A stretch of DNA of 64,000 bases from Marinicella sp. (GCA_965230295.1 OZ246001.1:3776001-3840000); one strand, 5' to 3'. Shown: positions 22,805 to 58,198, counted from the stretch's first letter. Notes: generated by a model not told the origin, from the letters alone. Numbers and translations are program-made.

Positions 22805-25800
22805 ATGAAATTCATAATTACAATTGCACTACTTTTGGGATTGGTGGCTGCACCCGTTGATGCAGAAAAAAAAGAATCATCTAAATTGATGACAGATAAA
22901 CTGTTTTCTGGGATGAAACTAAGAAATATTGGTCCTGCTTATATGTCAGGACGAATTGCGGATATTGAAGTTGACCCAAACAATCCTTCGATTTGGTATG
23001 TGGCTGTTGGCTCAGGTGGGGTATGGAAAACCGCTAATGGCGGCATTACCTGGGATCCAATTTTTGATAGCCAACCCGTTTATTCGATCGGTGATGTCAC
23101 TCTTGATCCTAGTAACTCAAACATTGTTTGGGTAGGCACAGGCGAAAACAATGCTGGTCGTCACTTGAGTTTTGGTGATGGCATTTACCGTTCACTTGAT
23201 GGTGGTGCTACTTGGACCAACATGGGGCTAAAAAAATCTGAACATATTTCAGATATTATTATTCACCCCAAAGATTCCAATACGGTTTGGGTTGCTGTTC
23301 AAGGCCCTTTATGGACTAAAGGTGGTCAAAGAGGATTATATAAAACTACTGATGGTGGTATGAACTGGAAAAACATACTTGAATTTAATGAGTGGACAGG
23401 TGTTACATCATTAGTCATGGATTCTCGAAATCCAGATAAACTTTATGCGGCCAGTTGGCAAAGACAGAGAACATTGCCAACCTATGTAGGAACCGGCCCC
23501 GGTTCTGGTATTCATACCACAGATGATGGTGGTAAAACCTGGAGAAAATTAAGTGGAGGTTTACCTATTGAAGATATGGGTAAAATTGGCTTAGCCATTT
23601 CAGCCCAAAATCCTGATGTTGTTTATGCCGCGATTGAAGTAAACCAACGTAAAGGTGGTGTTTATCGCTCAACTAACCAAGGTGCCAGCTGGAACAAAAT
23701 GTCCGATGAAGTAGGAAGTGGAACCGGTCCTCACTATTACCAAGAAATCTATACTGACCCACATCGTGATGATCGAATTTACTTAATGAGTAATAACAGT
23801 AAATACAGTAATGACGGTGGTAAGACTTGGGCCAATTTAAGTAATCAGTATAAGCATGTTGATGATCATGCCATGGCTTTTCATCCAAAAGACCCTTATT
23901 TTATGCTAGTGGGCAGTGACGGTGGTGTGTATGAATCAAGAGACGACATGAAGAATTGGCGTTATATGCAGAATTTACCAATTACTCAGTTTTATAAAAT
24001 AGCAGTTGATGATTCTATGCCTTTTTACTATATTTATGGCGGTACTCAAGATAATGCATCCCAAGGAGGCCCTTCACGAACAACCAGAGCACATGGAATT
24101 AAGAATAGTGACTGGTTTTTGATTTTGAATTGGGACGGACACCAACCGGCTACAGAACCTGGTAACCCAGATATTGTTTATGGGCAAAGACAAGAAGGTA
24201 ATCTGGCTCGATACCATCGCAAAACCAACGAATACGTATCAATTCAACCACAAGCCAGACCAGGTGAGCCAGGCGAGCGTTACAATTGGGATGCTCCAAT
24301 TTTAGTTTCAGCTCATGATCCGAAGCGCCTTTACCATGCTTCCCAGAGAGTATGGCGTTCTGATGATAGAGGTAACAGTTGGCGCACCATTTCAGGCGAT
24401 TTAACCAAGAATGAAAACAGAATGCATATACCGGTAATGGATCGTACGTGGTCAGTAAATTCTGGGTTTGATCTTTACGCTATGTCTAATTACAACACCA
24501 TCACAAACATCGCTGAATCACCACTTGATGAAAATATTTTGTACGTCGGTACGGATGATGGCTTGATTCAAGTGACATCAGATGGTGGAGCAAATTGGCA
24601 GCGTCATCAACTGGCTAACATCAGAGGCGTCCCTGAAACTGCATATGTGAACGACATTCGAGCAGATTTATTTGACAAAGACACGGTTTATGCTGCTTTA
24701 GATAATCACAAGCATGGTGATTACAACCCTTATCTGATTAAAAGTACCAATCGTGGAAAGTCTTGGAAATCTATCGCATCGAATTTACCCAATAATCATT
24801 TCGTTTGGAGGATTGTCCAAGATCATGTGAATAAAAATCTATTTTTTGTGGGTACAGAATTTGGATTGTTCTTTACTGTTAATGCAGGTAAAGATTGGGT
24901 TAAATTAACAGGTGATGTACCAACTATTTCTTTCCGAGATGTAAAAATTCAACGCCGCGAGAATGACTTGGTTGCAGGCAGTTTTGGCCGTGGTATATTT
25001 ATTTTAGATGACTATTCACCCTTGCGGAGTATCAGTGAATCAACACTTAGACAAGATGCTTTGTTGTTTCCCTCAAGAGATGCCCTCTGGTACATACCAG
25101 ATGCCTTACATACAAATTCGCACGGGGATTTTGAATACCGAGCCAAGAATCCAGATTTTGGTGCCACATTCACTTATTATCTGCGCGATGGTGTTAAATC
25201 AATGAAAGCGCTTCGAGAGGAGAAAGAGCAAAAGAACATACAGAAGGGAGAGTACCCATTGTATCCGGCCTTGGATATGATTGAGGCTGAAGTCAGAGAA
25301 ACAAAACCAGAAGTTTATTTACTTATAAAAGACAGTGAAGACAACATTGTTCGCAAGGTTGCTGCAAAAACAGGAAAAGGGCTTCACCGAGTCACTTGGA
25401 ATTTGCGCAAACCGTCTACAAATGCATTAGGCACAGCGCCAAGCTTTTTTGGAAATGTAGGCTCTTTAGTAGCGCCAGGTGAGTACAGTGCATCGTTGCA
25501 CGCAAAAATCGGTGGTCAAACGAGTATGTTGACACCAGCTGTTCGTTTTAATGTAATAGCACTTCATCAAGAAAATGAGGATGGTGCCGTTTCACCTCAA
25601 AAACGTACTGAGCTTATGCATGATGTTGATAATTTAAGGCGACATGTTTCAACAGCAAACAGTCAAGTCAAATTTCTAGAAAGTCAATTGACTTTCATAC
25701 AAACTGCGATGGATCGCTCTGCTACAATTTCTGCTGAATTGGAAGATAAATACCAACAATTGAGAGCAGCTGTATTTGAAATAGATAAGGTTCTAAATGG

Positions 25801-26059
25801 TTACTCATTCAGTAGAGGCTTAAATGCCATAGGTGCTGCACCTGCCACACTTTCAGACCGTATGTTTATGATTGAATTTGCCAAAGCCAACACTTGGGGT
25901 CTGACAGATACTCAAAAACAACAAATTGTATATGTGAAAGATGCATTAGGTAAGTTGCAGCCAAAAATTAAAAGATTGATGCAAAAAGAGTTCCCAGCTT
26001 TTAAAGCTTCACTTCTGAAAGCAGGTGCCCCCGGGATTCCAGCAGGTGTAATTGAATAA
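22805..26059 (+). CDS. Secreted VPS10/sortilin-like BNR (Asp-box) repeat glycosyl-hydrolase-like protein
   Basis: RNIGPAYMSGRIAD N-terminus, many S/TxDGGxTW Asp-boxes, GGTQDN motif, C-terminal coiled coil; lacks the FxxGF tail. Confidence 0.88.
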   Translation: MKFIITIALLLGLVAAPVDAEKKESSKLMTDKLFSGMKLRNIGPAYMSGRIADIEVDPNNPSIWYVAVGSGGVWKTANGGITWDPIFDSQPVYSIGDVTLDPSNSNIVWVGTGENNAGRHLSFGDGIYRSLDGGATWTNMGLKKSEHISDIIIHPKDSNTVWVAVQGPLWTKGGQRGLYKTTDGGMNWKNILEFNEWTGVTSLVMDSRNPDKLYAASWQRQRTLPTYVGTGPGSGIHTTDDGGKTWRKLSGGLPIEDMGKIGLAISAQNPDVVYAAIEVNQRKGGVYRSTNQGASWNKMSDEVGSGTGPHYYQEIYTDPHRDDRIYLMSNNSKYSNDGGKTWANLSNQYKHVDDHAMAFHPKDPYFMLVGSDGGVYESRDDMKNWRYMQNLPITQFYKIAVDDSMPFYYIYGGTQDNASQGGPSRTTRAHGIKNSDWFLILNWDGHQPATEPGNPDIVYGQRQEGNLARYHRKTNEYVSIQPQARPGEPGERYNWDAPILVSAHDPKRLYHASQRVWRSDDRGNSWRTISGDLTKNENRMHIPVMDRTWSVNSGFDLYAMSNYNTITNIAESPLDENILYVGTDDGLIQVTSDGGANWQRHQLANIRGVPETAYVNDIRADLFDKDTVYAALDNHKHGDYNPYLIKSTNRGKSWKSIASNLPNNHFVWRIVQDHVNKNLFFVGTEFGLFFTVNAGKDWVKLTGDVPTISFRDVKIQRRENDLVAGSFGRGIFILDDYSPLRSISESTLRQDALLFPSRDALWYIPDALHTNSHGDFEYRAKNPDFGATFTYYLRDGVKSMKALREEKEQKNIQKGEYPLYPALDMIEAEVRETKPEVYLLIKDSEDNIVRKVAAKTGKGLHRVTWNLRKPSTNALGTAPSFFGNVGSLVAPGEYSASLHAKIGGQTSMLTPAVRFNVIALHQENEDGAVSPQKRTELMHDVDNLRRHVSTANSQVKFLESQLTFIQTAMDRSATISAELEDKYQQLRAAVFEIDKVLNGYSFSRGLNAIGAAPATLSDRMFMIEFAKANTWGLTDTQKQQIVYVKDALGKLQPKIKRLMQKEFPAFKASLLKAGAPGIPAGVIE

Positions 26060-27982: not shown

Positions 27983-29635
27983 ATGAAAATAAACAAAATA
28001 GTATTTTTACTGACGCTATTATTCAGTCATCTATCTGTGATGGCACAATTACTCAGCGAAGTCGACTTATCTAGTTTGGATGGTCAAAATGGCTTTGTCA
28101 TCAATGGTGAATCTTTAGGTCTTTTTGGCGGTTCAGTCAGTTCTGCAGGCGATGTCAATGGTGATGGGCTTGGTGATTTTATTGTTGGGGCTCCGTTCGC
28201 CTCTAGTTCAAACAGTGATGTGGAGGTTCGTGAGAGGGTTGGCAAGAGTTATGTGATCTTTGGCAGTGAGGAAGGTTTTTCCAATCCGTTTGATTTATCC
28301 ACTCTCGATGGCGGGAATGGATTTGTTATAAATGGCGAGAATGCAGATGATCTTACGGGTTATTCTGTCAGTTCAGCCGGCGATGTCAATAGTGATGGTA
28401 TTGATGATTTAGTCATTGGTGCGTATGGCGCAGATCCATATGGTGGGCCAGAAAATGCTGGTAGAAGTTATGTGATTTTTGGCAGTGACGAAGAGAATGG
28501 TTTTTCCAGTTCGTTAAACGTGACTGATGTTGATGGTGAAAATGGCTTTGTCATCAATGGTGAAAATATGAATGATTATTCGGGTGTTTCAGTCAGTTTG
28601 GCGGGTGATGTTAATGGTGATGGGGTTGGTGATTTAATTATCGGGGCAGATTTTGCTGATCCGCATGGATTAAAAAATGCTGGTGTATGTTATGTGATTT
28701 TTGGCAAAAGGGTTGATGGCAGTAAGATTGGTTTTCCTCATCCGTTTAACCTATCTACTCTCGATGGTGAGAACGGCTTTGCTATCAATGGCGGAAGTGT
28801 AAGTGGTTTTCTGGGACGTGAAGTCAGCTCGGCCGGTGATGTCAATGGTGATGGGATTGATGATTTGATCATGGGTGCAGCTAGTGCAGATATAGGCGGT
28901 CAGTTTAATGTTGGTAAAAGTTATGTGATTTTTGGCAGCGACGAAGAGAATGGTTTGCCTCATCCGTTTAACCTGGTTGACCTTAATGGTGACAATGGAT
29001 TTGTCATTATTGGCGAAAATGAAGATGATTCGTCGGGTAGATCTGCCAGTTCAGCTGGCGATGTCAATGGTGATGGAATTGACGATCTGATAGTTGGAGC
29101 GTCTGGAGCTAATAAAAATTATGTGATCTATGGCCGCAGAATTGATTTCCCTCATCCATTTAACCTATCCACCCTGGATGGTGGTAGAAATGGTTTTGTT
29201 ATTAATGGCGAAAATGCAGGTGACGCTTTGGGTTCGTCAGTCAGTGCATTAGGCGATCTCAATGGTGATCAAATTGATGATTTGTTTGTTGGGGCTCCTG
29301 GTGCAGATCCTGATGGCAGATCAAATGCCGGTAAAAGTTATGTTGTCTTTGGGAGGAACGGTGGTTTACCCAATCCGTTTAATCTGTCTAACCTTAACAT
29401 CGACAACTGTCATAAAGGTATTACCATTAATGGTGAAAGTATAGATGATCTTTCAGGTTGGAGACTCAGTTCAGCAGGTGATGTCAATGGTGATGAAATT
29501 AATGATTTGATTATTGGAGTACCTGGTGCAGGTTCGGTTGGTAAAAGTTATGTGATCTTTGGAAAGAATGATAGCGCTGATATAGGCGGCGACAATGGTG
29601 ACACAATCTTTAAAAGCGGTTTTGAATGTATCTAG
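27983..29635 (+). CDS. Secreted FG-GAP 7-repeat protein, DTIFKSGFECI tail
   Basis: Signal peptide ending VMA-Q, seven FG-GAP repeats. Confidence 0.92.
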   Translation: MKINKIVFLLTLLFSHLSVMAQLLSEVDLSSLDGQNGFVINGESLGLFGGSVSSAGDVNGDGLGDFIVGAPFASSSNSDVEVRERVGKSYVIFGSEEGFSNPFDLSTLDGGNGFVINGENADDLTGYSVSSAGDVNSDGIDDLVIGAYGADPYGGPENAGRSYVIFGSDEENGFSSSLNVTDVDGENGFVINGENMNDYSGVSVSLAGDVNGDGVGDLIIGADFADPHGLKNAGVCYVIFGKRVDGSKIGFPHPFNLSTLDGENGFAINGGSVSGFLGREVSSAGDVNGDGIDDLIMGAASADIGGQFNVGKSYVIFGSDEENGLPHPFNLVDLNGDNGFVIIGENEDDSSGRSASSAGDVNGDGIDDLIVGASGANKNYVIYGRRIDFPHPFNLSTLDGGRNGFVINGENAGDALGSSVSALGDLNGDQIDDLFVGAPGADPDGRSNAGKSYVVFGRNGGLPNPFNLSNLNIDNCHKGITINGESIDDLSGWRLSSAGDVNGDEINDLIIGVPGAGSVGKSYVIFGKNDSADIGGDNGDTIFKSGFECI

Positions 29636-29763
29636 GAATAAATTGTTTATTAAAAAGAATTCTCAGTTCTGAGGAGCAAGGCTGACCCTTTTGTGTATAT
29701 AGGCGTCAGACTGGGTTAGCCATTCTGGCAAATGTTATTTAATTAATAAAAATAAAGAAAGTT

Positions 29764-31398
29764 ATGAAAAAAAGTAAAAATGTATATGTAATTATATTAT
29801 TGGCAGTATTAGGCCATCAAGCTGCGTTTGCACAGTTTACAAGTGAATTAAATCTGTCAGATCTGAATGGTCAAAATGGCTTGATCATCATTGGTGAAAA
29901 TGGAATTGATTTTTTTTCGGGCTACTCTGTCAGTTCAGCCGGTGATGTTAATGGAGATGATGTTGATGATTTAATTATTGGAGCCTTTGGAGCTGACTTG
30001 GATGGGCTGGAAGGTGCTGGTAAAAGTTATGTGGTCTTTGGTAGTGAGGGCCGTTTGCCCAACCCTATTAATCTGTCTAACCTCAACGGGCAAAATGGTT
30101 TTATGATCAACGGCGAAAACAGGGATGATGCCTCAGGTATTTCCGTCAGCTCAGCTGGTGATGTTAATGGAGATGATGTTGATGATTTGATCATTGGAGC
30201 CTTAAGAGGAAATCCGAATGGCCAGACAAATGCTGGTAAAAGTTATGTGGTTTTTGGGAGCGCCGATGGTTTTTCAAGTCCGTTTAACCTGTTCCTTCTC
30301 AACGGACAGAATGGCTTTATTATCGATGGCGAAAGTGCAGGTGATTTCTCGGGCCATTCAGTCAGTTCTGCCGGTGATGTTAATAATGATGGATTTGACG
30401 ATTTAATTATTGGAGCATTTGGTGCTAATACAGGTGGTCAGCCATTTGCAGGAAAAAGTTATGTGGTCTATGGTAGTGGAAATAGTTTTCCAAATCCTCT
30501 TAACCTGTCTACCCTCAATAGTGAGAACGGGTTTGCTATTAATGGCGAATTTGCAGGTGATGAATCTGGCCGTTCAGTCAGTTCTGCTGGCGATATAAAT
30601 GGTGACGGAGTGGGTGATTTTGTAATTGGAGCCCATCCTGCAGATTTGGGTGGAGATGTAAATGTTGGTAAAAGTTATGTAGTCTTTGGTAGAAACGGCG
30701 GTTTGACCGATCCGTTCAACCTGCTTCAACTCAACGGACGGAATGGCTTTGTCATTAATGGTGAAAATGCAGGTGATAATTCAGGCATCTCGGTTAATTC
30801 AGCCGGTGATATAAATGGTGATGGCATTGATGATTTAATCATCGGTGCTTCTGGTGCAGATCCAAATGGTCAGTCGAATGCTGGAAAAAGCTATGTATTT
30901 TTTGGCATTGAAGATGAGGAAGGGGAGTTGGTTTTCCCCAATCCGCTTAACTTAATTGACATTAACGGACAGAATGGCTTTGTGATTTATGGAGAAAATG
31001 CAGGTGATGAATCAGGTATTTCGGTCAGTTCAGCTGGGGATGTTAATGATGATGGAATTGATGATTTGATTATTGGAGCTAGTAAGGCAAATCCGAATGG
31101 TGCTTTTGGTGCTGGTAAAAGCTATGTGGTTTTTGGTAATTCGACCTGTTTTCCTAGCCCACTTTACTTATCAACCCTCAATGGTAACCATGGTTTCACT
31201 ATTAATGGCGAAAATGAAGGTGATGAATCTGGCATTTCCGTTAGTTCAGCTGGTGATTTTGATAATGATGGAATTGATGATTTGATTATTGGAGCCAGTA
31301 GAGCAGATCTGAAAGGAGCTTTTGGTGCTGGTAAAAGCTATGTGGTTTTTGGTGGCAAGAGCGATATGGTTTTTGCAGATGGTTTTGATTGTAATTAA
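29764..31398 (+). CDS. Secreted FG-GAP 7-repeat protein, DMVFADGFDCN tail
   Basis: Signal peptide AFA-Q, seven FG-GAP repeats. Confidence 0.92.
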   Translation: MKKSKNVYVIILLAVLGHQAAFAQFTSELNLSDLNGQNGLIIIGENGIDFFSGYSVSSAGDVNGDDVDDLIIGAFGADLDGLEGAGKSYVVFGSEGRLPNPINLSNLNGQNGFMINGENRDDASGISVSSAGDVNGDDVDDLIIGALRGNPNGQTNAGKSYVVFGSADGFSSPFNLFLLNGQNGFIIDGESAGDFSGHSVSSAGDVNNDGFDDLIIGAFGANTGGQPFAGKSYVVYGSGNSFPNPLNLSTLNSENGFAINGEFAGDESGRSVSSAGDINGDGVGDFVIGAHPADLGGDVNVGKSYVVFGRNGGLTDPFNLLQLNGRNGFVINGENAGDNSGISVNSAGDINGDGIDDLIIGASGADPNGQSNAGKSYVFFGIEDEEGELVFPNPLNLIDINGQNGFVIYGENAGDESGISVSSAGDVNDDGIDDLIIGASKANPNGAFGAGKSYVVFGNSTCFPSPLYLSTLNGNHGFTINGENEGDESGISVSSAGDFDNDGIDDLIIGASRADLKGAFGAGKSYVVFGGKSDMVFADGFDCN

Positions 31399-31487
31399 TA
31401 ATTAATAGTAAATTAAAAGAGTTTTTACGGTCAGGATACGGTGATCTTTTTATGAAAATTTTTATCTCTGTGGAGTTAATTAAACAT

Positions 31488-33116
31488 ATGAAAAAAACAA
31501 ATATATGTGTGTTCTTATTGTTACTGACAGTATTAAGCCATCAAACTGTGTTCGCGCAATTCCTCAGTGAATTTGAGCTGTCTGAATTGAATAATAAAAA
31601 TGGCTTTATTATCAAAGGTGAAAATGAAGGTGATCTTTCAGGCTTTTCTGTCAGTTCAGCAGGTGATGTCAATGGTGATGGGATTGATGATTTAATTATT
31701 GGGGCTTTCGGCGCAGATCCGGGCGGAGAGTCAAGTGCTGGTAAAAGTTATGTGATCTTTGGGAATAGGAATGGTTTCTCCAATCCGTTGAACCTATCCA
31801 CCCTAAACGGTGAAAACGGGTTTGTGATTAATGGCGAAGATACAGATGATTTTTCCGGCATTTCAATTAGTTCAGCAGGCGATGTCAATGGCGATGAGAT
31901 TGATGATTTAATTATTGGGGCCTCCGGTGCAGACCCAGGTGCTGTATCAAGAGCAGGTAAAAGTTATGTGATTTTTGGTAGTAGGATTAAATTTCCACAT
32001 CCATTTAGCCTTTCTACACTCAATAGTAGAAATGGTTTTGCTATACATGGTCAACATCATAGCGATTTTTCAGGCCGTTCAGTTAATTCTGCAGGTGATT
32101 TCAATGGCGATGGAGTTGATGATTTGATTATTGGAGCCCATGGAGCAAATCCAGGTGTTGGAGCAAATACTGGTAAAAGTTATGTGATTTTTGGCAGCGA
32201 CGAAGAGAATGGTTTGCCTCATCCGTTTGATTTATTTCATATCAATCCACAGAATGGCTTTGTTATTAATGGCGAAGATGCGGGTGATGATTCGGGAATT
32301 TCAGTCAATTCTGCAGGCGATGTCAATGGCGATGGTATCGATGATTTAATCATTGGGGCGGATGGTGCTGATCCAGATGGCAAATTAAATGCTGGTAAAA
32401 GTTATGTGATCTTTGGTAGAACCGAACCGTTGACCAGCCCGTTCAATTTATCTGAACTCAACAGCCAAGACCAAGACGGGTTTGTCATCAAAGGTGAAAA
32501 TGAATTTGATAATTCGGGCGTATCAGTCAGTTCAGCTGGTGATTTCAATGGCGATGGGATCGATGATTTAATTATTGGTGCTAATGGTGCAGGTCTAATT
32601 GGCCAACCCGATATTGGTAAAATTTATGTGATCTTTGGAAGTGATCATGAATTGACGAATCAGTTTAATCTATCTAATGTTAATGGACTAAATGGTTTCG
32701 TTATAAATGGTGAAAATGCAGGAGATAATTCGGGAATTTCAGTCAATTATGCAGGTGATGTTAATGGCGATGGTGTCGATGATTTAATCATTGGGGCAGA
32801 TGGTGCTGATCCAGATGGCAAATCAAATGCTGGTAAAAGTTATGTGGTTTTTGGAAAAAATGGCTGTTTACCCAGTTCACTTAATCTATCAAATCTTGAT
32901 GGTAATAATGGTTTTACTATCAACGGTGAAAATGAAGGTGATAATTCGGGAAATTCAGTCAATTCTGCAGGTGATGTTAATGGTGATGAGATTGATGATT
33001 TGATTATCGGAGCTTATACTGCCGATCCGAATGGTGCTTCTGGTGCTGGTAAAAGCTATGTGGTCTTTGGCAGCAAGAGCGATATTATTTTCGAAAGTGC
33101 GTTTGACTGTAATTAG
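31488..33116 (+). CDS. Secreted FG-GAP 7-repeat protein, DIIFESAFDCN tail
   Basis: ORF track starts at 31452; MKKTN start at 31488 matches paralogues and follows GGAG; seven repeats. Confidence 0.9.
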   Translation: MKKTNICVFLLLLTVLSHQTVFAQFLSEFELSELNNKNGFIIKGENEGDLSGFSVSSAGDVNGDGIDDLIIGAFGADPGGESSAGKSYVIFGNRNGFSNPLNLSTLNGENGFVINGEDTDDFSGISISSAGDVNGDEIDDLIIGASGADPGAVSRAGKSYVIFGSRIKFPHPFSLSTLNSRNGFAIHGQHHSDFSGRSVNSAGDFNGDGVDDLIIGAHGANPGVGANTGKSYVIFGSDEENGLPHPFDLFHINPQNGFVINGEDAGDDSGISVNSAGDVNGDGIDDLIIGADGADPDGKLNAGKSYVIFGRTEPLTSPFNLSELNSQDQDGFVIKGENEFDNSGVSVSSAGDFNGDGIDDLIIGANGAGLIGQPDIGKIYVIFGSDHELTNQFNLSNVNGLNGFVINGENAGDNSGISVNYAGDVNGDGVDDLIIGADGADPDGKSNAGKSYVVFGKNGCLPSSLNLSNLDGNNGFTINGENEGDNSGNSVNSAGDVNGDEIDDLIIGAYTADPNGASGAGKSYVVFGSKSDIIFESAFDCN

Positions 33117-33222
33117 AAATAAATCTATGACTCGAAAGGTTATTAGCTTTTGGGAGTGTGGCGACCTTTTTAGTAAACTCACTACTATGTCACTGTGATT
33201 TTACTATTTATTTTTTTAGCAT

Positions 33223-33540
33223 GTGACAAAAAGAACAAATATAGTTTTTTGTCTTATTATCCATCAAGTAGCTCTTGCTCAGTTTTCCTTTGAATTAGAC
33301 TTGTCTAATTCAAACGGCCAAAATGGTTTCATTATCAATGGCAAAAATGCAGGAGATGAATTGGGTTATTCAGTCAGTTCAGCTGGTGATGTCAATGGAG
33401 ATGGAGTCGATGATTTGATTATTGGTGCCTTTAGTGCCAATCCAAATGATACTTTTGGGGCAGGTAAAAGTTATATAGTCTTTGGCAGCAAGGGCGATAA
33501 AGTTTTTAAAAGCCCGTTTGATGGGTTTGTCTGTCATTAG
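33223..33540 (+). pseudogene. Single-blade FG-GAP minigene (internal deletion), tail DKVFKSPFDGFVCH
   Basis: 5' part nearly identical to 33646 onward (shortened signal peptide), 3' part resembles the last blade of 31488-33116; upstream intergenic 33115-33222 duplicates 33540-33645. Confidence 0.7.
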
Positions 33541-33632
33541 GAATAAATCTTTGACTCAAGAGATTACTAATTTTAAAGAGTACGGTGACCTTTTTAATAA
33601 ACTCCACTATGTCAGTGTGAGTTTACTATTGA

Positions 33633-35045
33633 TTGTTTTTAGTATATGAAAAAAAGAAAAATATAGTTTTTGCCTTATTATCAACTGTGCTGAGTCATCA
33701 AGTAGTTTTTGCTCAGTTTTCCGTTGAATTAGACTTGTCTGATTTAAACGGCCAAAATGGTTTCATTATCAATGGCGAAAATGCAGGAGATGAATTGGGT
33801 TATTCAGTCAGTTCAGCAGGCGATGTCAATGGTGATGGGATTGATGATTTAATTATTGGTGCCAATGGTGCACGTCATAATGGTGAGTCAAGTGCTGGCA
33901 ATAGCTATGTGATATTTGGTAACGAGGGGTTTTTATCTGGTTCATTTAACCTACCCAATCTCAATGGTAAAAATGGATTTGTTATTAATGGACAAAATGG
34001 AGTTGATTTTTCATCGGGTTGGTCAGTCAGTTCAGCTGGCGATGTCAATGGTGATGGTGTTGATGATTTGATTATTGGCGCATCTAATGTAGATCCAAAT
34101 CATCAGTTAAGAACAGGAAAAAGTTATGTGATCTTTGGTAGTTTAGACATTTTCCCGCGCTCTCTTAATTTAGCCACTCTTAATGGTGATAATGGTTTTG
34201 TTATCAATGGCGAAAATAGAGGTGATTATTTGGCTCAATCAGTCAGCTCAGCAGGTGATGTCAACAATGACGGGGTTGATGATTTAATCATTGGAGCCCT
34301 TGGTGCAGATCCGGATGGTCGGTCTAATGCAGGGAAAAGTTATGTGATTTTTGGCAGTGACGAAGAGAATGGATTATCTCATCCGTTTAACCTGATTGAT
34401 ATCAATGGTGAAAACGGATTTGTCATCATTGGCGAGAATGCAGATGATTTTTTGGGTTATTCTGTCAGCTCAGCAGGTGATGTCAACAAAGACGGGATTG
34501 ATGATTTGATCATTGGTGCATATCGTGCAGAATCAGATGCCGGGAAAAGTTATGTTATTTTTGGCAGTGACGAAGAGAATGGCTTACCTCATCCGTTTAA
34601 CCTGATTGACATCAATGGTGAGAATGGTTTTGTTATCAATGGTGAAAATGATGGTGATGAATCGGGCCGTACAGTTAGTTCAGCTGGTGATGTCAATGGT
34701 GATGGGGTCGATGATTTGATTATTGGAGCTTATAAAGCAGATTCAGATGGTCGGCCAAACACAGGTAAAAGTTATGTGGTATATGGCAGTAAAATTGAGT
34801 TTCCTAGCCAGTTAAACCTATCCACCCTCGATGATGAAAATGGCTTCGTGATCAATGGCAAAAAAAATGGTGATGGACTGGGTCGTTCAGTTAGTTCAGC
34901 TGGTGATTTCAATAATGATGGAGTGTCCGATATGATTATTGGGGCACCTAATAATAAATGTGATAATTCAGGTAAGAGTTATGTTATTTTTGGAATGAAT
35001 GACAATAACGAAGTTGTTTTCAGAAATGGGTTTGATTGCATTTAG
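33633..35045 (+). CDS. Secreted FG-GAP protein with 6 repeats, EVVFRNGFDCI tail; paralogue-equivalent ATG (33646) is out of frame
   Basis: Six GD[VF]NxDG repeats; ATG AAA AAA AGA AAA ATA TAG at 33646 is one base short relative to paralogues. Confidence 0.8.
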   Translation: MFLVYEKKKNIVFALLSTVLSHQVVFAQFSVELDLSDLNGQNGFIINGENAGDELGYSVSSAGDVNGDGIDDLIIGANGARHNGESSAGNSYVIFGNEGFLSGSFNLPNLNGKNGFVINGQNGVDFSSGWSVSSAGDVNGDGVDDLIIGASNVDPNHQLRTGKSYVIFGSLDIFPRSLNLATLNGDNGFVINGENRGDYLAQSVSSAGDVNNDGVDDLIIGALGADPDGRSNAGKSYVIFGSDEENGLSHPFNLIDINGENGFVIIGENADDFLGYSVSSAGDVNKDGIDDLIIGAYRAESDAGKSYVIFGSDEENGLPHPFNLIDINGENGFVINGENDGDESGRTVSSAGDVNGDGVDDLIIGAYKADSDGRPNTGKSYVVYGSKIEFPSQLNLSTLDDENGFVINGKKNGDGLGRSVSSAGDFNNDGVSDMIIGAPNNKCDNSGKSYVIFGMNDNNEVVFRNGFDCI

Positions 35046-35136
35046 GTTGAGAATATTCCATTCACAAATTAGTCAGCAAGCAGCCATTTTTCCATTTTTG
35101 AATTAAATCCATTGAAATCAATTATTAAAAAAACCT

Positions 35137-35200
35137 TGCAACAAAACTGATGGCTGCTGCAACGAAGCTTATAGTTGATTTTTGTGTGTAAATGTAAACT
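35137..35200 (+). promoter_or_regulatory. TGCAAC-N15-TGCAAC box with -10 element
   Basis: tgcaac 35137 and 35158; TAAACT at 35195. Confidence 0.75.
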
Positions 35201-35558
35201 TGTCATGTTGCATAGTTTTCTTGATTAACAGATCAATTTATTGTGCATCTTTTGATGGTAAGATTCATGCCGACACCAGGGCTGACTGCTAGTGACATGA
35301 TGCCTAAACTCATCCCTGAGAATCTATCTTTCAAAGTGAAAAAGACGTTTTGACATTACGACAGTTTTAATATCGAATCGATTTTTATAGGGAATGAAAT
35401 CATTATTGATGCCAAGTGTGGGCAAGTTAATAGACACATGGGATGATTAAAAGGAGTGGTGGCGTAAAACACATCGCTATTTTTAAAATCGATACCATTG
35501 AAGTTTGGTTATGTGGTGGTTTTTCTTAATTACAAAAAAGCAAAATGAGGTTTGAGTT

Positions 35559-37154
35559 ATGAAAATAAAGAAAAAAGTAAGTGTAACATTATTGTTGGCT
35601 TTATTGAGCCATCAAATAGCTTTGGCACAATTTCCAGTTGAGCTAGAGTTATCTGATTTGAATGGCCAAAATGGCATTGGCATTAATGGAGAAAAATTTG
35701 GTGATTTTTCAGGCTCTTCAGTCAGTTCTGCTGGTGATTTCAATGACGATGGGATCGATGATTTGATTATTGGGGCCTATAATTCAGGTGCAGGTAAAAG
35801 CTATGTGATCTTTGGAAGTTCTACTGGTTTGAATCTATTTAACTTGGGTTCCCTTAATGGCAAAAATGGTTTTGTGATAAATGGCGAAAGCTATGGCGAT
35901 GATTCAGGTCTTTCGGTCAGTTCAGCCGGTGATTTCAATGGCGACGAAATTGATGATTTGATTATTGGAGCCCCCGATGCGTTTCTAAATGGTGGACGAT
36001 CTGTTGGTAAAAGTTATGTAGTCTTTGGTAGATCGGAAGGTTTGCCCAACTCATTAAATTTGTCCGAGCTCAATGGTGAAAATGGCTTTGTGATCAACGG
36101 CGAAAATGAAAGAGATTTTTTAGGTAGATCAGTCAGTTCGGCTGGTGATTTTAATGGTGATGAAATTGATGATTTAATTATTGGGGCTTTCGGCGCAGAT
36201 CCGGACGGAGAAACAAATGCTGGTAAAAGTTATGTGGTGTTTGGTAGTACGGCAGATTTGCCTCGCACACTTAATTTGTCTACCCTAAATGGAGAAAATG
36301 GTTTTGTTATCAATGGCGAAAACGCAGGTGACCATTTGGGTTATTCAGTCAGTTCAGCTGGAGATTTTAATGGTGATGAAGTTGATGATTTGATTTTAGG
36401 AGCCTATGGTGCAGATCCAGACGGCCAATCATTTGCAGGTAAAAGTTATGTGGTCTTTGGCAGTGACGATGAAAACGGTTTACCAAATTCTTTTAACCTT
36501 TCCTCCCTCAATGGCGAGAATGGTTTTGCAATACATGGCCAAAATCAAGATGATTTTTCGGGTCAATCAGTCAGTCTTGCCGGTGATGTCAATGGCGATG
36601 GGTTAGATGATTTGATTATTGGAGCCTTTAATTCAGGCGCAGGCGCAGGTAAAAGTTATGTGGTCTTTGGCAACACTGAAGGTTTATCCAATCCACTAAA
36701 CTTATCCACCCTCAACGGCGAGACTGGATTCGTTATCAACGGCGAAAATGAGAATGACGGTTCGGGTTATTCAGTCAGTTCAGCCGGTGATGTTAACGGT
36801 GATGGGGTTGATGATTTAATTATCGGCGCAGATTTAGCAGATTCTGATGATGCAATAAATGCTGGTAAAAGTTATGTGGTCTTTGGTAGCACAGAGGGTT
36901 TTCCCAATCCGTTTAACCTCTCCGATCTTGATGGTTTAAATGGTTTTGTTATCAATGGTGAAAATAGGGGGGATCTTTCGGGACATTCAGTCAGTTCAGT
37001 CGGTGATGTTAATGGTGATGAAGTTGATGATTTAATTATTGGAGCATATTTTGCTTGTGACCGTTCGGGTAGGAGTTATGTGGTCTATGGTCAGAATAAC
37101 GATGGGAGTAATAATGGTGACATAATTTTTAAAAATGGATTTGGATGTATGTAG
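35559..37154 (+). CDS. Secreted FG-GAP 7-repeat protein, DIIFKNGFGCM tail
   Basis: Signal peptide ALA-Q, seven repeats, GAGG RBS. Confidence 0.92.
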   Translation: MKIKKKVSVTLLLALLSHQIALAQFPVELELSDLNGQNGIGINGEKFGDFSGSSVSSAGDFNDDGIDDLIIGAYNSGAGKSYVIFGSSTGLNLFNLGSLNGKNGFVINGESYGDDSGLSVSSAGDFNGDEIDDLIIGAPDAFLNGGRSVGKSYVVFGRSEGLPNSLNLSELNGENGFVINGENERDFLGRSVSSAGDFNGDEIDDLIIGAFGADPDGETNAGKSYVVFGSTADLPRTLNLSTLNGENGFVINGENAGDHLGYSVSSAGDFNGDEVDDLILGAYGADPDGQSFAGKSYVVFGSDDENGLPNSFNLSSLNGENGFAIHGQNQDDFSGQSVSLAGDVNGDGLDDLIIGAFNSGAGAGKSYVVFGNTEGLSNPLNLSTLNGETGFVINGENENDGSGYSVSSAGDVNGDGVDDLIIGADLADSDDAINAGKSYVVFGSTEGFPNPFNLSDLDGLNGFVINGENRGDLSGHSVSSVGDVNGDEVDDLIIGAYFACDRSGRSYVVYGQNNDGSNNGDIIFKNGFGCM

Positions 37155-37280
37155 GTACAAGTCATTCAAGAAAGAATTTTTAATTGTGAGGTCTGCGGCG
37201 GTTTTTATAAAGTCTGACATCACTGAAACCTATTTCGTAATTTTTCATTACTTATATGCAAATAACATAAGTCTACATTT

Positions 37281-38879
37281 ATGAAAATAAGAAAAATATT
37301 TATCATTTCTTTAATTTTAGGGTTGAACAACCAAATAGTCTTAGCGCAGTTTCCAGCAGAAATTGAACTAACTGACTTGAACGGTCTAAATGGACTAATT
37401 ATCAATGGCGAAAATACAGGCGATGTTTCAGGTTTCTCTGTAGCTTCAGCAGGCGATGTCAATGGTGATGGGATTGATGATTTAATTATTGGGGCTTTCG
37501 GCGCAGATCAGGGCGGAGAGTCAAGTGCTGGTAAAAGCTATGTGATCTTTGGGAGTAGGAATGGTTTCTCCAATCCGTTGAACCTATCCACCCTCAACGG
37601 TGAAAACGGGTTTGTGATTAATGGCGAAGATACAGATGATTTCTCAGGTATTTCTGTCAGTTTAGCTGGAGATTTTAATGGTGATGAGATTAATGATTTG
37701 ATCATTGGGGCATCTGGTGCAGACCCAGATGCGCAGTCAAGGGCTGGAAAAACTTATATTATATTTGGTAATAGATATTTTCCTAGTTCGCTTCATTTAT
37801 CCGCCCTCAACAGTGAGAATGGGGTTGTCATCAATGGTGAAAATACAAATGATAATGCTGGTAAGTCAGTCAGTTCAGCTGGTGATTTCAATAATGATGG
37901 GATTGGTGATTTGATTATTGGGGCCTATGGTGCAGAAACAATAACAGGTAAAAGTTATGTGGTCCTTGGCAGCACTAGAGGTTTACCCAACAATCCGTTT
38001 GATCTGGCCACTCTCAACGAAGAAAATGGCTTCGTTCTCAATGGTGAAACCATTGGTGATAGCTCAGGAGCACATGTCAGTTCCGCAGGTGATGTCAATG
38101 GTGATGGAATTGATGATTTGATTATTGGGGCCTATACTGCAGATTCAGGTATTATATTTAATGCAGGTAAAAGTTATGTGGTTTTTGGTACTACCGACGA
38201 ATTACCCAGTCCGTTTCACTTGTCCGATCTTGATGGCTTAAATGGTTTTGTCATTCATGGTGAAAATGATAGTGATAATGCTGGTGTTTCAGCCAGTTCA
38301 GCTGGGGATGTTAATGGCGATGGAGTTGATGATTTAATTATTGGAGCTTATAAAGCAGATTCAGATGGTCGACCAAACACAGGTAAAAGTTATGTGGTAT
38401 ATGGCAGTACAACTGCATTTTCTAATCGGTTGAAACTTCGCGACCTAAATGGTGAAAATGGCTTTGTTATCAATGGCGAAAATACAAATGATTTCCTAGG
38501 AGGTTCAGTCAGCTCTGCAGGTGATGTCAATGGTGATGGGTTTAGCGATTTGATCATTGGGGCTACTGGTGCAGATTCAGGTGCGGGTAAAAGCTATGTG
38601 GTTTTTGGGAATTTAACTTCCTGTTTATCGAAGTCACTTAATCTAGACACCCTCAATGGTGAAAATGGATTTGTTATCAATGGTGAAAAAGCGGGAGATA
38701 ACGCAGGTATTTCAGTCAGTTCAGCTGGTGATGTCAATGGGGATGGGATTGACGATTTGATTATTGGAGCTTATAGTGCTGATCACAATAACGAATCAAA
38801 TGCTGGTAAAAGCTATGTAGTCTTTGGAATCAATAACAATGACGATATGATTTTCGAAGATGGGTTTGATTGTATTTAG
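37281..38879 (+). CDS. Secreted FG-GAP 7-repeat protein, DMIFEDGFDCI tail
   Basis: Signal peptide VLA-Q, seven repeats. Confidence 0.92.
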   Translation: MKIRKIFIISLILGLNNQIVLAQFPAEIELTDLNGLNGLIINGENTGDVSGFSVASAGDVNGDGIDDLIIGAFGADQGGESSAGKSYVIFGSRNGFSNPLNLSTLNGENGFVINGEDTDDFSGISVSLAGDFNGDEINDLIIGASGADPDAQSRAGKTYIIFGNRYFPSSLHLSALNSENGVVINGENTNDNAGKSVSSAGDFNNDGIGDLIIGAYGAETITGKSYVVLGSTRGLPNNPFDLATLNEENGFVLNGETIGDSSGAHVSSAGDVNGDGIDDLIIGAYTADSGIIFNAGKSYVVFGTTDELPSPFHLSDLDGLNGFVIHGENDSDNAGVSASSAGDVNGDGVDDLIIGAYKADSDGRPNTGKSYVVYGSTTAFSNRLKLRDLNGENGFVINGENTNDFLGGSVSSAGDVNGDGFSDLIIGATGADSGAGKSYVVFGNLTSCLSKSLNLDTLNGENGFVINGEKAGDNAGISVSSAGDVNGDGIDDLIIGAYSADHNNESNAGKSYVVFGINNNDDMIFEDGFDCI

Positions 38880-38990
38880 GCATAAGTGTAAATTCAAAGT
38901 ATATTCTTCCCTAAAAAATGTCTAACAAATAGTAAATTGATATTTCTCTTTCATAATCAAACCTATTGCAATCAGATATTCAGAAGGCGT

Positions 38991-39055
38991 AGCAACAAAA
39001 TTGATTGATGTTGCAACTAACTTCATAGTTGATTTTTCATGTGTATGTGTAAACT
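38991..39055 (+). promoter_or_regulatory. TGCAAC box with -10 element
   Basis: agcaac 38991 and tgcaac 39012; TAAACT at 39050. Confidence 0.7.
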
Positions 39056-39400
39056 TAATTGACTGTGTTTTAATTTACAGTAATTAGACATGATAAGTTC
39101 ATAGCAAGCAAACGCTTAATGTTTTGATTGTAAAAATGGCGCCTCGTTACATTACAGTTATGCAGCATGCCTAATTTCTGGAAATCTATTAACAGCTAAT
39201 AACTTTGGAATTGCTCAGTCTACAACACGTTTATACTGTTTGGCTTTACTTGCTTACGGAAAAAATGTGTGTCATTTCATGGGATAGAAGCCGGAGAAGA
39301 AGTTGACTAGAGAGTTAGTGATAACAATAAGTGGATTATGAAGTGTTTTATCGCTTTAATTTGAATGTGAATTGGCCGTGTAAATTTAAAACAAAATGAG

Positions 39401-41038
39401 ATGTTTATGAAAATAAGAAAAAAAGCAAGTTTTGCTTTATTATCAACAGTATTGGGGCATAATTTAGCGTTCGCCACATTACCTCGTCAATTAGATTTAT
39501 CTGATTTGAATGGTCAAAATGTCTTGGTTTTTAATGGTGAAAATGCTAATGATCGCTTGGGTCGATCTGTAAGTTTTGCAGGTGATGTCAATGGAGATGA
39601 AATCGATGATTTAATTATTGGTGCCTATAATGCAGATTCAGGTAGTGAATCACGTGCAGGTAAAAGTTATGTAGTCTTTGGTACTGAGGATAACTTGCCT
39701 AGCTCATTTGATCTGTCTACACTCGATGGTGAGAATGGCTTTGTTATCAATGGCGAAAATAGCCGTGATCTATCGGGTTATTCTGTCAGTTCAGCCGGAG
39801 ACTTTAATAATGATGGTGTTGATGATTTAGTTATTGGAGCATTTGGTGCCAGTATCGATACTAATTTAAGTGTTGTTTCAGATGTCGGTAAAAGTTATGT
39901 GATTTTTGGTAGTAAATTAGGTTTTCCTAGTTTACTTGAATTGTCCACTCTCAATGGTGTAAATGGTTTTATTATCATTGGTGAAACTGAAGAAGATTAT
40001 TCGGGGGTTTCAATCAGTTCAGCAGGTGATGTCAATGGAGATGAAATTGATGATTTAATTATTGGGGCGTATGGTGCAGGATCTGATGCCGGTAAAAGTT
40101 ATGTGATTTTCGGCAGTGAGGAAGAATTAACCAGCCCGTTAAATTTATCAAATCTCGATGGTGAGAATGGTTTTGTAATCAATGGCGAGAATGCAGGCGA
40201 TTCTTCTGGCCTTTCTGTCAATTCAGCTGGCGATGTAAATCATGATGGGATTGATGACATAATTATTGGGGCTTTCGGCGCAGATCCGGGCGGAGAGTCA
40301 AGTGCTGGTAAAAGTTATGTAATCTTTGGCAGTGACGATGAGAACGGCTTGCCTAATCCTTTTAACTTATCCTCCCTCAATGGTGAAAATGGTTTTGCAA
40401 TACATGGTCAATATGATGGTGATTTATCGGGCGAATCAGTCAGTTCAGCAGGTGATGTCAATGGTGATGGAATTGATGACTTGGTTATTGGTGCATTCGG
40501 CGCAGATCCAGGTGAAGTGTTAGGTGCTGGAAAAAGTTATGTGATCTTTGGTAGCCCGGATAATATACCCCATCCGTTTGACCTATTTGATATCAATGGA
40601 CAGAATGGTTTTGTTATTAATGGTGAAAATGCATTTGATGCATCTGGTCATTCAGTGAGTTCAGCCGGCGATATCAATAATGATGGGATCGATGATTTGA
40701 TTATTGGGGCTCTGGGTGCTGATCTGGGTACTGACTTAGATGTTGGCAAAATTTATGTGGTCTTTGGCAGTGATGAGACTTTTCTCAACCCGTTTAACTT
40801 GTCTGACATCAACTTCAAATGTGAAAATACTTTTCTTCAAAATGCTTTTCTCATTAAAGGCGAAAATACAGGTGATAATGCTGGCACCTCCGTCAGTTCA
40901 GCCGGTGATTTTAATCATGATGGGATTGGTGATTTGATCATTGGAGCCGAAGGGGTTAATTCAAGAACTGGCAAAAGCTATGTTGTCTTTGGCCGCGAGA
41001 GCGAAATCATTTCTGCAAATGGCTTTGATTGTATGTAA
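39401..41038 (+). CDS. Secreted FG-GAP 7-repeat protein, EIISANGFDCM tail
   Basis: Signal peptide AFA-T, seven repeats. Confidence 0.92.
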   Translation: MFMKIRKKASFALLSTVLGHNLAFATLPRQLDLSDLNGQNVLVFNGENANDRLGRSVSFAGDVNGDEIDDLIIGAYNADSGSESRAGKSYVVFGTEDNLPSSFDLSTLDGENGFVINGENSRDLSGYSVSSAGDFNNDGVDDLVIGAFGASIDTNLSVVSDVGKSYVIFGSKLGFPSLLELSTLNGVNGFIIIGETEEDYSGVSISSAGDVNGDEIDDLIIGAYGAGSDAGKSYVIFGSEEELTSPLNLSNLDGENGFVINGENAGDSSGLSVNSAGDVNHDGIDDIIIGAFGADPGGESSAGKSYVIFGSDDENGLPNPFNLSSLNGENGFAIHGQYDGDLSGESVSSAGDVNGDGIDDLVIGAFGADPGEVLGAGKSYVIFGSPDNIPHPFDLFDINGQNGFVINGENAFDASGHSVSSAGDINNDGIDDLIIGALGADLGTDLDVGKIYVVFGSDETFLNPFNLSDINFKCENTFLQNAFLIKGENTGDNAGTSVSSAGDFNHDGIGDLIIGAEGVNSRTGKSYVVFGRESEIISANGFDCM

Positions 41039-41154
41039 GTGATAATCCTTGATTACAAAAATTCAACTATGAGGAAATTTCAACAGGTCATTTTGTGATC
41101 TCAAAATTGCTGGTGTTGGATGATTTGTTGTTTGTATATAAAAGGTTTAGGGTT

Positions 41155-41371
41155 GAACTAAAAAAAATTATTTCTGGTTATCGTTATGACATTGTTTAAT
41201 CCGCAAATAGTTCTCGTGCATTTTTCCAGTAAATTTAACTTGCCTGATTTGAATGTTCAAAATAGCCCTTTCCTCACTAGAGAAAATACAGGTGATACTT
41301 TGAATTATTCAGCTAACTTATTAGCTGACGATTTCAGTGGTGAACAACAGTCAGTTTCAGAAACCAGGTAA
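41155..41371 (+). pseudogene. Decayed 5' end of an FG-GAP paralogue
   Basis: NPQIVLVHFSSKFNLPDLNVQN...ENTGDTLNYSA resembles paralogue N-termini (NQIVLAQF..E.DL.DLNGQN...GENTGD..G.SV). Confidence 0.65.
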
Positions 41372-41505
41372 TTATGAATTCAATCTCGATTTCACAAACA
41401 TCATGACACTTACACTTATCAAAACAGGGTTATTTATCAATTATGCTATATAACAAATGGTTATGATCAAACTAACAATAGCTAAATTTAAACAGAGAAA
41501 TGTCG

Positions 41506-41712
41506 ATGAATATTAAAATATTTATAACTTTGATTTTGATGTTATTCGCATGCTACACGTATGCAGAGCGGGAAACGACAGTTATTCCACCAAATTTTCA
41601 CCTATGAATGAAGCATTGATTTCTGTCATTGATATTCCCGAGTTCGCTTCAGTTGAATATTAAGTTCCTGTATGTCTGATTGTTCATGGTTCTGGGGGTG
41701 TTTTCTTCCAAT
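41506..41712 (+). pseudogene. Decayed 5' copy of the 45154 alpha/beta hydrolase gene
   Basis: DNA aligns with 45154-45360 (tatgcaga, gtcattgatattcc, gttcatggttctgg) but contains in-frame stops/frameshift. Confidence 0.8.
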
Positions 41713-42034
41713 GAAGTTAAGGATAAAAGTGTGAGGCAATATTGAAATGGATTAAATGGCTATATGAAACCGGTGGCCTACTAAACAGAGTTTATATGAA
41801 TTTGTTGGACAACATTGGCTATTGTTAATAACAGCATGAGCCAAATGGAGTTAACAGCTTCCAATCACGATAAGTTCCATTGCTCTGGTTCACCATTTAT
41901 AAAAGTAATTAAATTTAACTTTTTGGCTTTCTATCGAAGATGCAAATTTTGTCAGATGGAATGGTCGTACCAATACAAGGTATAGTGATTAAACACACTA
42001 AACCTTTTAAAAACAACACATGAGGTCTTATAAC

Positions 42035-44773: not shown

Positions 44774-44823
44774 ACACAAGTGTCTAACTTGAGGCATGGC
44801 TATGGAAATTAAGAGTAATAAAT

Positions 44824-54300: not shown

Positions 54301-54424
54301 ATGAATTGATATTTTCAAAATTCATAAATTGTTACAAGACAATAGTGATTTTATTGATATTGACCAACGATTAGCACGTGAGGAAGAGTATGACGAGCAC
54401 ATGCTGAGTACTTAGGAATGCTTT

Positions 54425-55872: not shown

Positions 55873-55977
55873 GTTCTTTACATCAATATGAAATTCATAT
55901 TTCTCAAGTAAGTTTATATCTGCAATACAACCAGTTGTAGTCAATTATCTTTAATATATTTTGAGTACTCAAACATT

Positions 55978-58197: not shown

Positions 58198-58198
58198 T

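Follow-up and report, generated by a model that had tools for sequence, protein, structure and literature searches.

Chouhan et al. (2011; PMC3192720) describe bacterial integrin-type propellers as carrying seven FG-GAP repeats with a Ca2+ motif in every repeat, and as more regular and compact than the propellers of metazoan integrins. Such proteins are abundant in bacteria, and very little has been established about what they do. Here we report on a tandem array of genes of this kind at positions 27983-41038 of a 64,000-nucleotide stretch of DNA from Marinicella sp. (GCA_965230295.1, OZ246001.1:3776001-3840000; hereafter the window), a marine gammaproteobacterium whose 4.0-Mb genome contains about 20 genes of the family. 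RpoB places the organism near Xanthomonadales/Lysobacterales (best match 75%), and Marinicella is also the source name of a protein with 54% identity. A first-pass annotation, made from the sequence of the window, had interpreted the array as integrin-alpha-like propellers in which gene conversion of blades builds a combinatorial repertoire of binders without a reverse transcriptase. The propeller identity, the sharing of DNA tracts and the lack of a reverse transcriptase were borne out by our analysis, but the blade as the unit of exchange and the combinatorial repertoire were not. In our reading, to which we assign a probability of roughly 0.7, the array encodes a tandemly expanded family of Ca2+-binding propellers that leave the cell, function as binders outside it, and evolve by duplication together with sporadic, short-tract ectopic gene conversion and unequal recombination. 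As it stands, the locus documents ordinary ectopic gene conversion in an expanded secreted-protein family, which is useful for annotation.

Highly repetitive beta-propellers have been delimited by a median internal blade identity >60% (Pereira and Lupas, 2022; PMC9218822), and that paper describes propellers of the VCBS/FG-GAP type as typically tied to carbohydrate recognition or protein-protein contacts. The median within-gene blade identities of genes B (0.64), C (0.64), D (0.61), E (0.66), and F (0.62) exceed this value, while those of G (0.60) and A (0.58) are borderline. In addition to internal blade identity, the array shares with these propellers blade-number variants and disrupted copies in the same lineage. 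It differs from them in showing no sign of recent amplification from a single blade: codon identity at positions encoding the same residue is 0.557, compared to 0.453 expected from the family's codon usage, and blade identity is equal within genes, between genes, and between species. A term search of PMC9218822 gave 0 occurrences of both "gene conversion" and "recombination".

The nearest mechanistic parallel is the WD-repeat family of Podospora (HNWD, het-d, het-e; Paoletti, Saupe and Clave, 2007; PMC1805685), whose repeats are exchanged and undergo concerted evolution, with positive selection at four surface positions. Both are multigene families of propeller repeats in which DNA passes from repeat to repeat, inside a gene as well as between paralogues, while variation clusters at the surface and repeat number differs among members. 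However, the fungal proteins are intracellular NOD-like receptors with repeats evolving in concert, whereas those described here are predicted to be secreted bacterial proteins with blade DNA ~69% identical and with sporadic exchange. Likewise, positive selection acts on surface positions in Podospora, whereas the ratio of nonsynonymous to synonymous substitution rates (dN/dS, or omega) in the array is 1.00 in columns that were picked for their variability.

Cassette-based antigenic variation, as in Neisseria (pilE/pilS), Borrelia (vlsE), Treponema (tprK), and Anaplasma (msp2), combines one expression site with silent, truncated cassettes and high-frequency switching. The array resembles these systems in the short-tract, non-reciprocal transfer of variable segments that are flanked by conserved DNA, without a reverse transcriptase. 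It differs from them in that its copies are all complete genes with no silent fragments between them and, more weakly, in that the short-read contigs show no population heterogeneity. Among the papers listed, our literature searches found no report of a tandem FG-GAP array with inter-blade exchange or of gene conversion between bacterial FG-GAP blades; by their titles and the openings of their abstracts, the papers retrieved for FG-GAP and gene conversion dealt with a brown alga and rotifers, and none was retrieved for Marinicella and FG-GAP.

Fold and architecture of the array proteins

The region at 27983-41038 encodes seven complete plus-strand open reading frames (ORFs) of 470-554 aa and a one-blade remnant, designated s, confirming the seven large paralogues in 13 kb of the first-pass annotation. 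Each of the genes A-G has its own start codon, leader, and stop.

27983-29635, + strand: gene A; signal peptide, seven FG-GAP blades, tail ...GFECI
29764-31398, + strand: gene B; signal peptide, seven FG-GAP blades, tail ...GFDCN
31452-33116, + strand: gene C; seven blades, likelier start at the second ATG (31488), protein used for folding
33223-33540, + strand: gene s; 105 aa, GTG start, signal peptide, one blade, tail ...GFVCH
33633-35045, + strand: gene D; six blades only, TTG as the sole start, the ATG before an A7 run being out of frame
35559-37154, + strand: gene E; seven blades, tail ...GFGCM
37281-38879, + strand: gene F; seven blades, blades 1-2 in register with gene C
39401-41038, + strand: gene G; seven blades, tail ...GFDCM

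Blades were counted with a hidden Markov model (HMM) built from 41 regular 72-residue units, which found seven in A, B, C, E, F, and G, six in D, and one in s. All eight array ORFs match the Pfam FG-GAP family (PF01839) at 30-176 bits against a cut-off of 22.1, with E-values of 1e-44 to 1e-53 and 6-7 matched stretches in each of the seven large genes. No other Pfam domain scored above cut-off in the array proteins, and the proteins end 10-20 residues past the last blade, with the thigh and calf domains and the membrane anchor absent. The array proteins are therefore propellers only and not integrin alpha subunits proper, and they resemble the bacterial propellers of the Chouhan et al. survey in having seven FG-GAP repeats with a Ca2+ motif in each, in being more regular and compact than metazoan integrins, and in not being full-length integrins.

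An AlphaFold model of the gene C protein, computed from a 13-sequence alignment, showed a regular four-strand repeat (pLDDT 88.2, pTM 0.88). When this model was submitted to Foldseek, the top matches were all integrin alpha propellers (alpha5, alphaV, and alphaIIb), with E-values of 1.8e-21 to 2.5e-18 and a TM-score of up to 0.75 on the target, and in a phmmer search of the PDB the nearest solved chains were the same integrins, with integrin alpha5 at 4.9e-8. Pfam, the fold model, Foldseek, and phmmer thus agree on integrin-alpha-like propellers, as the first-pass annotation had proposed. A Ca2+ loop (pattern GD[VIFLTA][NDS].[DN]) was found in 7/7 blades of A, B, C, E, F, and G and in 6/6 blades of D; the family criterion for this loop is D-x-[ND]-x-D-G-x-x-D, and metal binding is predicted from the motif.

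The array proteins begin with a hydrophobic leader ending in ..A.AQF in which the lipobox Cys is absent, and we infer that they are exported by the Sec pathway. They end in ..IF..GF[DEG]C[INM] with Cys as the penultimate residue, a feature confined to the seven array genes, gene s, and the one-blade ORF listed below, while in the other paralogues and in the relatives from the same genus the sequence stops at ..NGFD or ..NGFE and lacks this Cys. By this sequence character, the array is a distinct subclade. A single partner Cys is present in each of A-G as well, located variously in the blade-6 linker, at the beginning of blade 7, or in the loop of the last blade, and the two residues probably form a subfamily-specific disulfide predicted to staple the tail. 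A search of A, C, and G against NCBIfam for known C-terminal sorting domains gave nothing above cut-off. Compared to known bacterial propellers, the subfamily adds a penultimate Cys and a partner Cys near blades 6-7. The array propeller stands alone behind its signal peptide, unlike the majority of database relatives, which have greater length and carry fused RTX, Ig-like, or Calx-beta domains. As far as fold and family can indicate, the array proteins are most likely extracellular binding modules, lectin- or adhesin-like in character.

The blades combine a conserved scaffold with variable loops, in agreement with the first-pass annotation; column entropy over 48 array blades placed the variation after NGE, between IGA and GKSY, and after FGS. 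The post-NGE and IGA-GKSY segments we take to be the 4-1 and 2-3 loops on the ligand-binding face, presuming the blade topology of integrins and the strand order of the model. In an NG86 analysis of the 14 closest blade pairs, dN/dS was 0.16 over 54 columns of the scaffold but 1.00 over 18 variable columns, so that the loops change at about the synonymous rate; the columns were picked for variability, which makes the comparison partly circular. Proteins 55-62% identical to that of gene C, named "integrin alpha" or "FG-GAP repeat protein", are common in cyanobacteria and other phyla, a range comparable to the 47-69% identity of C to most of its own paralogues. All of these blades keep close to a consensus, and their scaffold is strongly constrained. 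Since synonymous sites are near saturation and the cyanobacterial proteins are about as similar as the paralogues, the symmetry of the array blades is due to strong constraint on a consensus blade and not to recent amplification.

Short DNA tracts shared between blades

Near-identical DNA is shared patchily among the array genes, both in and out of blade register and above the level of chance or codon bias, which upholds the central observation of the first-pass annotation. The four shared peptides that it had singled out all occur in the genes and blades it named, and the DNA behind them is 88-100% identical. For GAFGAD[PQ]GGESSAGKSY, blade 1 of gene C (C1) matches blade 4 of gene G (G4) at 51/51 nt, while C1 and F1, and F1 and G4, each match at 49/51; GAYKADSDGRPNTGKSYVVYGS is shared by D5 and F5 at 65/66 nt; FGSDEENGLPHPF is shared by A4 and C3 at 39/39 nt, with the D copies at 35-37/39; and SDDENGLPNxFNLSSLNGENGFAIHGQ is shared by E and G at 71/81 nt. 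The longest exact tracts between different array genes are 61 nt (C1-G4), 58 nt (A4-C3), 55 nt (C1-F1), 48 nt (D1-F1), and 47 nt (C2-F2).

31693-31753, + strand: 61-nt exact tract in C blade 1 (LIIGAFGADPGGESSAGKSYV), identical to 40260-40320
40260-40320, + strand: 61-nt exact tract in G blade 4, out-of-register partner of 31693-31753
28912-28969, + strand: 58-nt exact tract in A blade 4 (GKSYVIFGSDEENGLPHPF), identical to 32171-32228
32171-32228, + strand: 58-nt exact tract in C blade 3, partner of 28912-28969
34725-34790, + strand: D blade 5, loop YKADSDGRPNT with its flanks, 65/66 nt against 38343-38408
38343-38408, + strand: F blade 5, partner of 34725-34790
36462-36542, + strand: E blade 4/5 junction, 71/81 nt against 40331-40411 in G

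The last pair, 36462-36542 in E and 40331-40411 in G, looks like an older shared tract. Outside the tracts, identity falls to 0.17-0.80 per 30 nt. Around the 58-nt A4-C3 tract, for example, the successive 30-nt values are 0.53, 0.80, 0.70, 0.47, 0.77, 0.73, 0.50, 1.00, 0.97, 0.53, 0.73..., and the patch is therefore bounded on both sides by background divergence. A blastn search for high-scoring segment pairs at >=90% identity over >=40 nt returned one match only, because extension into the divergent flanks dilutes identity, and it was replaced by exact-match and windowed analyses. In 60-nt windows, patches at >=90% identity were found between C and F in blades 1-2 (~220 nt; whole blade 1 is 88% identical and whole blade 2 79%), C4 and C6 (138 nt), s and D in the leader and blade 1 (150 nt), D5 and F5 (130 nt), E3 and C1 (110 nt), D3/4 and D4/5 (100 nt), A4/5 and C3/4 (75 nt), and C1 and G4 (~70-110 nt). 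Tracts were thus copied between blades of different genes and of one gene, in and out of register, and gene C is a partner in most of the long ones, pairing with A, E, F, G, and itself.

Three controls indicate that the shared tracts are not products of scaffold conservation or codon bias. First, we permuted codon columns in a manner that preserves both pair identity and column conservation; among 3160 blade pairs, a weighted run score >=15 was reached by 20 pairs against a null mean of 1.62 (null maximum 7), and one >=20 by 9 against 0.26 expected. Second, in an alignment rebuilt to include four same-genus genomes, array by array comparisons gave 16 against 2.74 (>=15) and 7 against 0.49 (>=20), while the 3984 pairs of array blades with blades of the other genomes gave 1 at >=15 and 0 at >=20. 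Third, exact matches of >=40 nt numbered 7 in 59 Mb^2 of array by array comparison, while 231 Mb^2 of comparison with the remaining paralogues of this genome, whose codon usage is the same, yielded 0. There were also 0 such matches in 306 Mb^2 against the arrays of the four same-genus genomes. A DNA tree of 56 blades contained well-supported out-of-register clades joining G4 with C1/F1 (88), A4 and A2 with D3/D4 (85 and 82), C3 with G5 (93), F4 with G1 (89), and C4 with C6 (96).

The tracts could conceivably have arisen with no conversion at all, as leftovers of duplications of blades or partial genes that were unevenly kept by chance or by selection on DNA or RNA. According to PMC9218822, amplification of blades, in some cases of internal blades locally, does give rise to highly repetitive FG-GAP/VCBS propellers; within-gene neighbors are often the closest blades in our data (D3-D4, B6-B7, Y5-Y6, C4-C6), and gene labels on the blade tree require 34 changes compared to 40.2 +/- 1.8 when shuffled. 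However, both sides of a tract stand at background divergence, as in the A4-C3 series of 0.50, 1.00, 0.97, and 0.53 per 30 nt, the out-of-register partners lie in genes that all keep seven blades, and the clustering of matches is above what overall pair identity allows. We therefore regard an origin without conversion as rather unlikely.

Positional clustering of blades does not help to decide the matter. The first-pass annotation held that strict clustering by blade position would speak against exchange; such clustering is absent, so that the idea of exchange is not contradicted, but it is equally absent across species and hence gives no positive evidence. On the same DNA tree, position labels require 33 changes compared to 33.9 +/- 1.6 when shuffled. 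Blade DNA identity is 0.69 within genes and, between genes, 0.695 at the same position and 0.682 at different positions. The comparison of same with different positions gave 0.626 and 0.617 within the array, 0.517 and 0.515 for the array against other paralogues, and 0.560 and 0.562 for the array against other genomes, and the signal is equally flat between same-genus relatives. Being flat in all of these comparisons alike, positional signal was rejected as a test of shuffling. Missing positional clustering among consensus-like repeats is no evidence of shuffling, and the locus serves as a caution in this respect.

We also considered whether mis-assembly, or polishing with mis-mapped short reads, could have created the patches. 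The region is highly repetitive, and contigs assembled from run X1, one run with 97% of the sampled words whose short-read contigs span all 30 bins, break throughout it: of the 94 contigs placed, 40 match the region only in part and 30 fit two places. However, the genome is a single contig of 4,008,074 bases, and tracts of 50-60 nt in flanks that are 70-80% identical let reads of ordinary length map uniquely. The eight listed pieces of X1 contigs had 0 differences from the window, and they break where a 31-mer graph must at the 61-nt repeat; one contig stops at 40289, 30 nt into the G4 tract, since such a graph must branch at a true repeat. Moreover, tracts of this kind also occur in relatives whose genomes were assembled independently. 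To the extent that these data allow a judgement, the shared tracts are genuine and not assembly chimeras, and an artefact is highly improbable, with the reservation that X1 is probably the genome's own sample and hence serves as a consistency check rather than as independent evidence.

The family was found in 12/18 sampled same-genus genomes and in 14/23 in a genus-wide DNA search, and several of these genomes have arrays of 4-5 seven-bladed genes. Exact blade-to-blade tracts in the relatives measure 241, 93, and 91 nt within genes and 53 nt between two genes, and their within-genome blade pairs exceed the permutation null (31 vs 10.4). Tract sharing is therefore a trait of the family and not of this locus alone. 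The repeats lie in three same-genus loci (L007, L008, and L009):

L008 4689-5133, L007 7447-7738, L009 6081 and 8995: exact blade-to-blade repeats of relatives (241, 93, and 91 nt within genes; 53 nt between two genes)

Some relatives are ~750 aa long with an extra C-terminal part. In each of two same-genus genomes, a conserved ORF of 344-345 aa adjoins an FG-GAP gene (L003 189-1226 and L006 2919-3953), and the first residues and the last 12 are shared between the two ORFs.

Exchanged unit, mechanism, and the repertoire question

Although blade-level exchange had been proposed, the unit that we observed is smaller than a blade: an exact tract of 25-61 nt, or ~70-220 nt at >=90% identity, with conserved ends and one variable loop or linker. 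Among the top 20 tracts, which are exact over 25-61 nt, 17 mix residues of a variable loop or linker with conserved scaffold (DDLIIGA, GKSYV.FG, NGF.ING, SVSSAGD), and the other 3 (C4-C6, F1-G4, Y5-Y6) consist of loop or linker sequence and include hardly any scaffold. The ends fall in conserved strand-coding blocks (DDLIIGA, GKSYV.FG, NGF.ING), and the cargo is a variable loop or a linker. Synonymous sites are near saturation outside the tracts, as the codon identity of 0.557 against 0.453 indicates, and the copies are therefore old and the exchange sporadic.

In our reading, these features result from ordinary homologous recombination among the repeats, through which the array expands and is altered. 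We infer that the tracts come from non-reciprocal gene conversion of the RecA type, with ends in conserved strand-coding DNA, and that the blade-number variants (the six-blade gene D, the one-blade gene s, and other short copies) come from unequal recombination. Exchange would then be a sporadic by-product of repeat homology that is open to selection, not a dedicated system of diversification.

Several points weigh against this interpretation. Part of the tract excess could be due to partial duplications and uneven divergence instead of conversion, and the in-register match of C and F in blades 1-2 (z 4.2) is expected from partial gene duplication too. Our searches found no same-species strain (the 13-kb DNA compared to 23 other same-genus genomes gave at best 66-67% identity over long matches), and in metagenome contigs a 30-nt tract had 0 matches, while protein C, searched against contigs from genomes and metagenomes, returned matches to the pattern but no relative; a conversion event is therefore not seen directly and its direction and age are not assignable. 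Relaxed constraint would also give a dN/dS of 1.00 in the loops, so that the value is no demonstration of diversifying selection, apart from the partly circular choice of columns. Finally, the loops are placed on the ligand face by the general topology of integrins and by the strand order of a model, and binding is suggested by fold and family.

The combinatorial repertoire of the first-pass annotation found little support. Windows at >=90% identity make up 2-26% of each large gene (A 2.6%, B 2.3%, C 25.6%, D 22%, E 6%, F 20%, G 6%), and many of them are merely the conserved Ca-loop block. The 48 IGA-to-GKSY loops, read from the blade list, are nearly all different, with about five shared (C1=G4~F1, D5=F5, A6=D3, C4~C6, C2~F2). 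A six-frame scan with the blade HMM found no blade fragments between the array genes, and thus no silent cassettes. The claim that no reverse transcriptase is involved held: RVT_1 (PF00078) had 0 matches in the 97.9%-complete genome, while the same search was positive in 3/14 control genomes. With no RVT_1 match in the genome, a diversity-generating retroelement is ruled out.

A rival reading is a programmed repertoire, in which a dedicated, high-frequency generator swaps loops between propellers within a population and so changes binding specificity, as a bacterial analogue of antigenic variation from cassettes or of the shuffling of WD repeats in fungi. The tracts carry variable loops and end in conserved DNA that could provide homology arms, gene C pairs with A, E, F, G, and itself, blade number varies, arrays recur in the genus, and the GC skew of +0.26 to +0.33 places G on the non-template strand. 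However, all members of the array are complete genes with no intergenic blade fragments, high-identity windows cover just 2-6% of A, B, E, and G, the sequence outside the tracts is close to saturation at synonymous sites, and almost all loops are unique. In addition, the X1 contigs at the locus have no indels or alternative letters and a single base difference, at a contig end, although this is weak evidence since contigs drop rare variants. On balance, a programmed generator seems distinctly unlikely to us.

In another reading, the array and the dispersed paralogues might together constitute a reverse-transcriptase-independent repertoire of secreted binders, with the invariant strand DNA acting as homology arms and ligand-face loops movable among ~50 blades; we consider this unlikely. 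If it were true, strains would differ in their loop combinations and binding specificity, and the array would be a bacterial, extracellular counterpart of the WD-repeat shuffling of fungi. Under the preferred reading of sporadic conversion, the locus is a clean example from a complete genome of a consensus-like blade scaffold that is both protein framework and recombination substrate, so that loop-coding segments can move between blades and genes. Should isolates differ in their loop sets, it would offer a tractable model for the diversification of binding surfaces in repeat proteins without a dedicated mutator.

Short copies, further paralogues, and neighborhood

In its first 150 nt, gene s is up to 59/60 identical per window to gene D, and we read it as a deletion derivative from recombination between a first and a last blade. 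The TTG start of gene D has no obvious ribosome-binding site, and genes B and C have the same ATG-A7 start as the ATG of D, but in frame. Genes s and D may be decaying copies; as an alternative to decay, the A-run of gene D could be a slippage switch.

The family extends beyond the array, with further paralogues elsewhere in the window. Genome-wide, the blade HMM detected 160 blades, 104 of them at 3.7-3.9 Mb.

17676-19256, + strand: distant seven-blade paralogue, no Cys tail
44788-45084: one-blade ORF
46679-48268, + strand: distant seven-blade paralogue, no Cys tail
50667-52254, + strand: frameshifted FG-GAP paralogue, overlapping ORFs 50667-51284 and 51154-52254
59925-60440: short paralogue, two blades
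61807-63387, - strand: seven-blade paralogue, 76-nt exact tract between two of its own blades

A short motif (..GGTGACCTTTTTA and variants), with a possible pairing partner before it, follows the stops of A, B, C, s, and E.

29636-29700, 31399-31450, 33117-33180, 33541-33600, 37155-37210: post-stop motif GGTGACCTTTTTA

Possible explanations of this motif, which a scan for consensus terminators missed, are a terminator of low strength and an intergenic element that was duplicated. A scan of promoters and terminators was uninformative, with 51 promoter-like sites compared to 58.5 +/- 7.3 in shuffles and 6 terminator-like sites compared to 11.1. No RNA data set containing the locus was among those listed. 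GC skew is +0.19 to +0.33 over 28001-42000, whereas the preceding sequence lies mostly at 0.0 to 0.13 and the sequence that follows at -0.17 to +0.18; the skew of the array is probably due to a coding strand rich in Gly, Asp, Ser, and Val codons, with the non-template strand markedly G-rich.

The window begins with two tyrosine recombinase genes (396-1637 and 3246-4196), after which come a GmrSD-type restriction gene (4318-5451) and then a gene of the RiboL-PSP HEPN type (5448-6242). Neither a tRNA gene nor a tRNA integration site was found in the window; the segment at 396-6242 may be the edge of an island. Secreted repeat proteins are encoded nearby on the same strand as the array (7482-9752, 12667-16524, 22805-26059, 52579-59053) and include DUF285/BspA-like, leucine-rich repeat, CotH kinase with lamin-tail, and BNR/sortilin-type glycosylhydrolase-like proteins. 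The neighborhood also encodes a 1285-aa hybrid histidine kinase-receiver-AraC protein, of a type that senses glycans in Bacteroides.

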